In this document: one piece after another, positions 62,255-63,256 of the stretch
How positions within the stretch are numbered: the stretch's first letter is position 1
How the letters are laid out: each line of letters begins with the position of its first letter
NCBI GenBank assembly: GCA_965306065.1
Contig: CBDLTN010000001.1
Span: 1,955-65,954, forward strand
Reading direction: 5' to 3'
Length of the DNA stretch: 64,000 bases
Source of the DNA: an uncultured Sulfurospirillum sp.
Lineage (GTDB): Bacteria > Campylobacterota > Campylobacteria > Campylobacterales > Sulfurospirillaceae
Translations under genes and position numbers: made by a program
The notes under the pieces: model-generated
Told to the model about the DNA's origin: nothing
Seen by the model: only the letters and a program-made list of their open reading frames with translations
Databases searched by the model: none

Positions 62255-63256
62255 TTATTGTCTATATAGGTTCTTATCCTCTTTCAACAAAACTTTTACA
62301 CCATCAATTACATCTTGAATACACTCAACTTCGCTCACTCCCAACCTACGCTTATTGCTTATATCAAAGATATTTTCTTCGCTTTTAGAATGCTCTCCAT
62401 GTATGCCTCTTATCTGCAGATGATATTCCTTGCATATTTCTTCAAGTTTAAACATGTTTTTTGAAAGATTTGGAAGTTTTAGGTGTACACTTGCACGCAT
62501 TGCTGTGCCTAAGTTAGTTGGGCAACTTGTTATATATCCTAGATTATCATTATATAAAAAATCTAAACTCTTCTCTAATTCAATTAAAAATTTAACCAAA
62601 CGAGAAAAAACTTCTTTAATATCTCCACCTTTTTGCATAGATATAATACGAAGCTGGTCTTCTTCATTTACCCAAACTAAAAATGTCTTCTCTTCATTAT
62701 GATAAATTCCACGACCACTTGGCCAGTCTCGATTAAGTCCTGCTGCTTCAAGAAATCTATCTCCCTCTTTAAATAGAAAATGCTCTTTTATCAAAGAGTT
62801 TTTTTCTTCTTTGCTTAAAGATTCAAGTGAATAGTATTTTCCTTTACATGTAAGAGATTTTATAGCTGATATAACTCTTCTTTCAACTTCAGATCTTTGT
62901 TTTTTAGAGATATTTGTTCCAAGTGGAAAATCTCTTAAATTTCTACCTACTCTTATTCTTGTTGAGATGATTTTATCTTCATCAATAACTGCATCTTTCA
63001 AACCCTTTACATGTAAAAATGTTCTATGTTTATCTTCTTTGTCAAATCCATGATACTCTTTAATAATAGGAGAAAAAACTTTAGCAAAAAGCTCATAAGA
63101 CTCTTCATCTCCTGCATATATTCCTATACTGCTATCTGGGTTTTTCACACCAGAGTTTATAGCCATATCTAAAGTGTATCCTGATTTGGTTTTTAAACTT
63201 TTTAACTCTTGATAAATCTCATCTTTTAGGTTCTTTTTCATTAATGATGTTTCCAT
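62255..63256 (-). CDS. Phosphagen (arginine) kinase, eukaryote-type ATP:guanido phosphotransferase
   Basis: CPTNLGT active-site signature; [52 protein letters not shown]...[11 protein letters not shown]. These blocks closely resemble invertebrate arginine kinases. Confidence 0.88.
   Translation of the reverse strand: [333 protein letters not shown]

Follow-up and report, generated by a model that had tools for sequence, protein, structure and literature searches.

The window studied here is a stretch of 64,000 nucleotides from an uncultured Sulfurospirillum sp. (contig CBDLTN010000001.1). On its reverse strand it carries a gene (62255..63256) whose product of 333 amino acids is, judged by its sequence, an intact arginine (phosphagen) kinase of the animal and protist type and not the protein-arginine kinase McsB. 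In every feature of sequence and structure that could be tested the protein agrees with arginine kinases (AKs), and it lacks every feature tested for McsB. Taking function and history together, we consider it very probable that the enzyme makes a phosphoarginine buffer for ATP and belongs to an old Campylobacterota lineage, and that the gene entered these bacteria, or was exchanged with eukaryotes, before the split of the Campylobacterota lineages carrying it and has been inherited in the subclade of the window since. An earlier sequence-only reading of this DNA had proposed a eukaryote-type AK from the open reading frame (ORF) and a few motifs, all of which are present in the translation where that reading placed them.

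Both domains of a phosphagen kinase were detected. The small α-helical N-terminal domain ATP-gua_PtransN (PF02807) matched residues 3–66 with 98 bits (cut-off 25.7; E=4.4e-28; profile positions 4–67 of 67), and the α/β catalytic domain ATP-gua_Ptrans (PF00217) matched residues 124–329 with 257 bits (cut-off 22.4; E=1e-76; profile positions 2–202 of 203). This is the two-domain architecture of the phosphagen kinases, and the two profile searches, proposed as a check in the sequence-only reading, thus found what that reading expected. When all PDB sequences were searched, the highest scores were those of the Anthopleura arginine kinase 4rf6 (355 and 350 bits for its two domains), followed by some 20 monomeric arginine kinases (E=1e-104 to 1e-95), by creatine kinases (about 1e-90 to 1e-81) and by lombricine and glycocyamine kinases (1e-76 to 1e-74). 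McsB chains ranked last (1e-28 to 1e-24, 88–100 bits) and aligned through the C-terminal domain only. Identity to the shrimp and sea-anemone arginine kinases was 51–52%. With the Litopenaeus enzyme (4bg4) it was 51.8% over 326 positions of the HMMER alignment (E=1e-104), so that the resemblance to invertebrate arginine kinases, first remarked on from the letters, is far beyond chance. An exact-sequence look-up of the protein matched no record, a PADLOC scan of it gave no defence-system match, and Rfam at gathering thresholds gave no match in the whole window.

To place the active site, residues were mapped through the HMMER alignment to 4bg4 and named in arthropod AK numbering. We found that the equivalents of D62, S63, Y68, S122, R124, R126, H185, R193, E224, E225, R229, C271, R280, H284, R309, E314, H315, D324 and R330 are conserved; in the same order they are D41, S42, Y47, S98, R100, R102, H159, R167, E198, E199, R203, C245, R254, H258, R283, E288, H289, D298 and R304 of the window protein. 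The mapped catalytic and substrate-binding residues are invariant in an alignment of 31 Campylobacterota homologues (alignment A1). The guanidino-specificity loop aligns with that of 4bg4 without any insertion or deletion. It has the length found in AKs, the serine and tyrosine corresponding to S63 and Y68, and the D62–R193 pair (D41, S42, Y47 and R167 in the window), and D41, S42, G45 and Y47 are invariant in the 31 Campylobacterota enzymes. The signature with its reactive cysteine, sought as C-P-x-[ST]-N-[ILV]-G-T, was counted as present.

A cluster of arginines binds the nucleotide in the AK of Limulus. The window protein has this cluster (R100, R102, R203, R254 and R283), together with the counterparts of S122, H185 and H284 (S98, H159 and H258). 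E225 and E314 (E199 and E288 in the window) we take to be the glutamates that position the guanidinium group, as in the transition-state structure of the Limulus enzyme (1BG0). The roles of S122, H185 and H284 and of R124, R126, R229 and R280 in AK have been described (PMC12467219). The sole changes among the positions checked were G64S, V65I and R312H. The Anthopleura enzyme 4rf6, which was deposited as an arginine kinase, likewise has serine at position 64 in its domain 2 and histidine at position 312 in the two domains alike.

An AlphaFold2 model built on the 31 homologues had a pLDDT of 86.3 and a pTM of 0.87. In Foldseek it matched crystal structures of arginine and creatine kinases with TM scores of 0.85–0.89 and a probability of 1.00, in more than 40 chains. 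Low confidence was limited to residues 163–176 and to part of the loop at 283–292, whose counterpart (residues 310–320) is called flexible in AK structures (PMC12467219). The predicted structure and the conserved residues point to an active ATP:L-arginine phosphotransferase.

We propose that the protein would act as a cytoplasmic, monomer-type arginine kinase (EC 2.7.3.3) that reversibly transfers the γ-phosphate of MgATP to a guanidino nitrogen of free L-arginine. The resulting phosphoarginine pool would buffer ATP when the energy supply fluctuates. L-arginine is suggested as the substrate by the AK-type loop and by the activity reported for Sulfurovum lithotrophicum, an organism that a passage of PMC6429109, citing Suzuki 2013, lists among those with N-phosphoarginine. 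Other bacterial enzymes are summarised in a section of PMC11492440, where the AK of Desulfotalea is given as the first bacterial one characterised and that of Myxococcus as needed for making fruiting bodies and spores.

The distribution of the gene was studied by scanning GTDB species representatives for only six short peptide patterns, all taken from the window AK. The scan gave 25 species-level Campylobacterota loci with an AK (L001–L025; identity 57–83%), labelled Sulfurospirillum, Arcobacter (a complete chromosome), Halarcobacter, Sulfurimonas, Sulfurovum and unclassified Campylobacterales. A protein search added about 100 metagenomic clusters with 62–80% identity, and beyond the Campylobacterota set the next sequences had 55% identity or less. 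The sequence-only reading had called phosphagen kinases rare and patchy in bacteria. This does not apply to the Campylobacterota, where even a six-peptide scan finds the gene in 25 species-level genomes, and the proposed check of sister genomes gave one Campylobacterota clade for all of these loci. The same reading was right that bacterial AKs, one from Sulfurovum included, had been reported before, since enzymes of Sulfurovum, Nitratifractor, Desulfotalea, Myxococcus and Moritella are described (PMC11492440), and a Sulfurovum enzyme has already been expressed.

The clade was obtained in a neighbour-joining tree of 266 domain sequences (323 columns, Kimura distances, 200 bootstraps). McsB was not among these sequences, and Sulfurovum and Sulfurimonas were represented by the Sulfurovum sp. 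bin170 locus (L022) and a Sulfurimonas locus (L013), not by the reference sequences named in Suzuki 2013. All Campylobacterota AKs, L022 and L013 among them, grouped together in 155 of the 200 bootstraps, and the window AK formed a subclade with L001–L007 in all 200. The nearest outside group was composed of P0020, P0023, P0030, P0037 and P0176, the last of which comes from EukProt; its sister relation to the Campylobacterota clade appeared in 82 of 200 bootstraps. Another bacterial lineage, that of P0154 and its relatives (49% identity; bacterial contig of 2.7 Mb), is placed outside the Campylobacterota clade. The bootstraps did not resolve the deep nodes of the tree.

The nearest outside group is probably ciliate, because the reading frame of the contig that encodes P0020 (L026) contains far fewer stops under the ciliate nuclear code than under the bacterial one (2 vs. 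13). That contig (JGI metagenome contig Ga0401699_0015096) has tandem AK-domain fragments in one frame and probably represents a multi-domain ciliate arginine kinase split by bacterial gene calling. The direction in which bacterial AKs were transferred has been called debated (PMC6429109), and an ancient transfer may have gone either way.

The shorter N-terminal domain mentioned in the sequence-only reading is real and extends to the whole subclade. Residue 4 of the window AK aligns with residue 25 of AKs of 356–357 residues (4bg4), and the first 21 or so residues of the 356-residue enzymes are absent. Most sequences of alignment A1 (338–358 residues) have 12–16 extra N-terminal residues with the consensus M-x-Y-P-x-F-T-K-E-x-K. 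The window AK and its closest relatives (325–332 residues) lack this segment and also have two 2-residue deletions in common. Since the truncation is found in all of the closest relatives, it is a fixed trait of the subclade and not a gene-calling artefact. The missing stretch precedes the PF02807 domain, because 64 of the 67 profile positions are matched. M1 is the first possible start after the upstream stop, and a longer ORF is impossible. Two relatives (P0012 and P0015) begin at the equivalent of M6, so the start in the window is M1 or possibly M6.

Our results showed that the gene is a long-term resident, compositionally assimilated into the genome of its host. Its GC content (0.308), its GC content at third codon positions (GC3, 0.198) and its synonymous-codon likelihood (z=0.03) are indistinguishable from those of 55 other ORFs of the window. 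Compared with five orthologues, among them those in L001, L002, L003 and L007, the ratio of nonsynonymous to synonymous substitution rates (dN/dS) was 0.085–0.14 with a dS of 1.2–1.7, and the gene is under strong purifying selection over a long divergence. A divergent gene for a major facilitator superfamily (MFS) transporter, 79–93% identical, adjoins the AK gene in L001–L006. Downstream in the window lie genes for a DUF411 protein, a cytochrome c and a Cus-like resistance-nodulation-division (RND) pump. L002 has all three; L004 has the DUF411 and cytochrome c genes, after which the locus ends. The adjacency of AK and RND genes is also seen in L002 and, in the other orientation, in the more distant L018. 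It looks like retained synteny rather than a functional link.

The sequence TTTACATGTAA occurs at 62843 and 63006, in both cases within the AK coding sequence. Its 10-mer core TTACATGTAA has 19 copies in the 64-kb window, where dinucleotide-preserving shuffles predict 0.21. The first of the two cores in the gene (62844) is found at the identical codon offset (403) in L001, L002, L003 and L006; L007 has it with one mismatch. The second (63007) is exact in the window only, and the orthologues have one-mismatch versions of it. From the two copies the sequence-only reading had concluded that the gene was an old resident. The copies are there, and long residence is upheld by composition, dN/dS, synteny and the clade, but copy number in itself is no evidence of age; what argues for it is that the palindrome at 62844 was kept at the orthologous position despite saturated dS.

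The palindrome has some properties of its own. Its extended consensus is CTTTACATGTAAAG (examples at 43864/43886, 54207/54228, 60157/60176, 62844 and 63007), and copies within ORFs are confined to the two reading phases that escape a TAA stop. Of the eight intergenic copies, six are arranged as three pairs, with copies 19–22 bp apart, just past the end of a gene. Each pair folds into a hairpin of 13–15 bp (ΔG −18 to −22 kcal/mol, z −5.3 to −6.6). This arrangement resembles that of uptake sequences or HIP1-like palindromes. The palindrome is found in the closest relatives (L001–L007) and is absent from L008–L025. A literature search for TTACATGTAA gave unrelated matches only.

The AK and MFS genes are separated by an intergenic region of 69 bp (63257–63325). 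A TATAAT box, the candidate −10 element, lies 5–6 nt before the ATG in the window and in L001, L002, L003 and L006, which suggests a leaderless or near-leaderless AK mRNA there. L004 and L005 instead have a 17-nt leader with the Shine-Dalgarno sequence AAGGAG. The intergenic region also holds an inverted repeat, a candidate operator, which together with an adjoining ACCCTAATTAAAC block is kept in L001–L004 and L006 although dS in the adjoining gene is 1.2–1.7. Transcription would start from the TATAAT box and would be controlled by the inverted repeat, common to AK and the divergent MFS gene.

A rival reading, given by some database annotations of homologues, is that of an McsB-type protein-arginine kinase, which would mark proteins for degradation. 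NCBIfam has only McsB models for the superfamily, and these match the protein with E values of 5e-48 to 9e-25; two homologues, P0084 and P0020, carry the name "protein-arginine kinase" in records of NCBI or JGI. However, all of these models remain below their cut-offs (164 vs. 385, 143 vs. 500, 123 vs. 471, 90 vs. 679 and 87.5 vs. 381 bits) and they cover only model positions of about 8–254, the phosphotransferase domain. The substrate-binding N-terminal domain PF02807 lies outside all of the McsB alignments, and the protein ends directly after the catalytic domain, at residue 333, without the dimerisation domain of the McsB architecture (PMC12467219). McsB chains in the PDB score 88–100 bits against 350 for AKs, and there is no McsA, CtsR or ClpC gene among the neighbours examined (54329–64000). 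McsB was rejected on these scores and on the domain architecture, not on tree topology, and we consider it extremely improbable. The preference of the sequence-only reading for a true phosphagen kinase was thus well founded, given both domains, the AK-type loop, the catalytic residues and McsB models that reach 88–164 bits against cut-offs of 381–679.

A phosphagen kinase for another guanidino substrate (for example D-arginine, agmatine, taurocyamine or glycocyamine), with its specificity retuned by the truncation and the loop substitutions, is a less remote idea. The N-terminal domain is shorter by about 21 residues, the specificity loop carries G64S and V65I and the catalytic loop R312H, and the taurocyamine kinase of Schistosoma is a close relative of AKs in the superfamily. 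The loop of that enzyme, however, is different and shorter in the same alignment, while the window protein has a loop as long as that of AKs and retains D62, S63, Y68 and R193; S64 and H312 are shared with the Anthopleura arginine kinase, in domain 2 and in both domains, respectively. Sulfurovum sequences, moreover, fall in the same clade, and S. lithotrophicum is the species listed with N-phosphoarginine (the passage of PMC6429109 cited above, after Suzuki 2013). We regard this alternative as unlikely. Hardly any weight can be given to a recent horizontal acquisition from a eukaryote or to eukaryotic contamination of the assembly, even with about 51% identity to metazoan AKs and a nearest non-Campylobacterota group in the tree that looks eukaryotic. 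The gene has bacterial genes on both sides in one contiguous sequence, it has no introns, and a bacterial promoter-like element lies upstream of it. GC, GC3 and codon usage match the host, and the host-specific palindrome lies inside the gene. Orthologues with the same flanking genes exist in six other genomes, including the complete chromosome L002, with a dS of 1.2–1.7. A "recent" date was rejected on composition, palindrome, synteny and dS.

Some points weigh against an ancient, ATP-buffering arginine kinase as we propose it. The loss of about 21 N-terminal residues, the two 2-residue deletions and the changes G64S, V65I and R312H may alter specificity or kinetics, and the model is poorly defined at residues 163–176, which include the R193 equivalent. 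The buffering role is suggested by analogy with eukaryotic and other bacterial AKs, and the neighbouring genes (for an efflux-type MFS transporter and a copper/RND efflux cluster) give no information on energy metabolism. A promoter and terminator consensus scan of 60900–63450 found 13 sites, against 12.9 in shuffled sequences, and no terminator after the AK gene. The window sequence was found in only two low-depth bioreactor metagenome DNA runs; a search for RNA runs with the AK locus found none, and RNA-labelled runs whose species label matched that of holders of the L002 orthologue gave no coverage. With these points considered, the arginine kinase of an old Campylobacterota lineage is still the reading we prefer. 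A more far-reaching version of it would be a phosphagen system that is ancestral, vertically inherited and transcriptionally regulated in the sulfur-oxidising/microaerophilic Campylobacterota instead of being imported sporadically, with the apparent ciliate sister group explained by transfer from bacteria to eukaryotes or by a very early shared origin, and with a truncated subclade that is leaderless and has a dedicated operator shared with the MFS gene. As a whole, this version is doubtful, and we offer it tentatively.

The features located in the gene and upstream of it are collected in Table 1.

Table 1. Position of the arginine kinase gene in the window and of the elements recognized in and before it
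Feature	Position	Strand	Basis or remark
Arginine kinase coding sequence	62255..63256	-	ORF list; ATG start; 333 aa
N-terminal α-helical domain ATP-gua_PtransN, aa 3-66	63059..63250	-	PF02807
C-terminal catalytic domain ATP-gua_Ptrans, aa 124-329	62270..62887	-	PF00217
Guanidino-specificity loop D41-S-S-I-G-I-Y47	63116..63136	-	Corresponds to D62-S63-G64-V65-G66-I67-Y68 of arthropod AK
Signature C245-P-T-N-L-G-T251, reactive cysteine equivalent to C271	62504..62524	-	Direct reading; invariant in A1
Segment N-E198-E199-D-Q-L-R203, equivalent to E224/E225/R229 of arthropod AK	62648..62668	-	Residue mapping; invariant in A1
Host palindrome TTACATGTAA in the coding sequence, (C)TT-ACA-TGT-AA(A) = L-T-C-K	62844..62853	.	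Sequence scan
Second host palindrome in the coding sequence, TTA-CAT-GTA-AAG = L-H-V-K	63007..63016	.	Sequence scan
TATAAT box, candidate -10 element, 6 nt upstream of ATG	63263..63268	-	Sequence; predicted
Inverted repeat TTAATTAGG-N11-CCTAATTAA, candidate operator	63280..63308	.	13-nt arms, 92% complementary; predicted

The neighbours examined code for the MFS transporter, an uncharacterised protein of 400 residues, the DUF411 protein, the cytochrome c and the Cus-like RND system. The 400-residue ORF (60999..62201, reverse strand) lies directly downstream of the AK gene. It had no match in Pfam, NCBIfam, PADLOC or the PDB and no counterpart in 25 related loci, and for both reasons a functional link with the AK was rejected. 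The slot downstream of the AK gene holds different genes among the relatives and, since each of them has another gene there, it is a variable insertion site. Contigs from bioreactor metagenomes confirm the 400-residue ORF in the strain. The copper/silver-type efflux cluster that adjoins the AK gene (54329–60995) encodes a YtkA-like protein, an outer-membrane factor, a CusB-like adaptor, an RND pump of 1038 residues, a small cytochrome c and the DUF411 protein. Elsewhere the window encodes a hydrogenase, a formate dehydrogenase, chemoreceptors and cyclic di-GMP signalling proteins, a gene content that would fit a motile organism living in redox gradients with a fluctuating energy supply. The ORF of the formate dehydrogenase alpha subunit (16139–18388, reverse strand) matches its family model only from position 138 on, and selB is found in the same window (33183–35015, forward strand); the ORF list probably breaks fdhA at an in-frame TGA codon for selenocysteine.

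True arginine kinases have no NCBIfam model of their own, and public records already call some bacterial AKs "protein-arginine kinase". Annotation is thus systematically led astray here, and a correct call in the present genome keeps the McsB label from spreading. It can be argued from the single clade conserved across genera, the strong purifying selection and the conserved promoter/operator block that a phosphoarginine system would be a stable part of the physiology of Campylobacterota that dwell in gradients. Culturable relatives in Sulfurospirillum, Arcobacter or Sulfurimonas would be reasonable models for the role of a phosphagen buffer in prokaryotes. The existence of bacterial arginine kinases was already known, and their origin is not settled by the present gene.

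The closest known systems are the AKs of cluster A (Suzuki 2013), which, as summarised in a section of PMC11492440, comprises enzymes of Sulfurovum, Nitratifractor, Oceanithermus, Moritella, ciliates and a sponge. Bacterial members include those of Sulfurovum lithotrophicum, Sulfurovum sp. NBC37-1 and Nitratifractor salsuginis (Suzuki 2013; Fraga 2019; both in PMC11492440). The window AK resembles them in phylum and in the two-domain architecture. It is 59–65% identical to sequences from Sulfurovum, Sulfurimonas and Halarcobacter metagenome-assembled genomes (MAGs) of the same clade, and its nearest outside group appears to be ciliate, as in cluster A (sister support 82/200). In contrast to cluster A, the subclade of the window (MAGs labelled Sulfurospirillum or Arcobacter, 75–80% identity) has lost 12–16 more N-terminal residues, carries the two 2-residue deletions, and has its own conserved divergent MFS gene and candidate promoter/operator block.

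With the metazoan enzymes of Limulus (1BG0/1M15), Litopenaeus (4BG4) and Anthopleura (4RF6) the window AK shares 51–52% identity, the fold (TM 0.85–0.89), the catalytic residues and the length of the loop. It differs from them in being about 21 residues shorter at the N-terminus, in small deletions, one place being the linker between the domains and the other just ahead of the GKYY motif, and in its bacterial genomic context; unlike the two-domain Anthopleura enzyme, it is single. Complete N- and C-terminal domains are also present in other bacterial AKs, for some of which activity or a physiological role has been shown, but these are placed in clusters B and B' (PMC11492440). McsB of Bacillus, Geobacillus and Staphylococcus has a homologous phosphotransferase domain (E of about 1e-24 to 1e-28). 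The window AK has, in addition, the PF02807 domain outside all McsB matches, and it has neither the C-terminal dimerisation domain nor the McsA partner of McsB (PMC12467219). The enzyme of the window is one more member of the epsilonproteobacterial arginine kinases, a branch of the bacterial enzymes described before, to which it adds, as minor new details, an N-terminal truncation specific to its subclade and a conserved candidate promoter/operator block.

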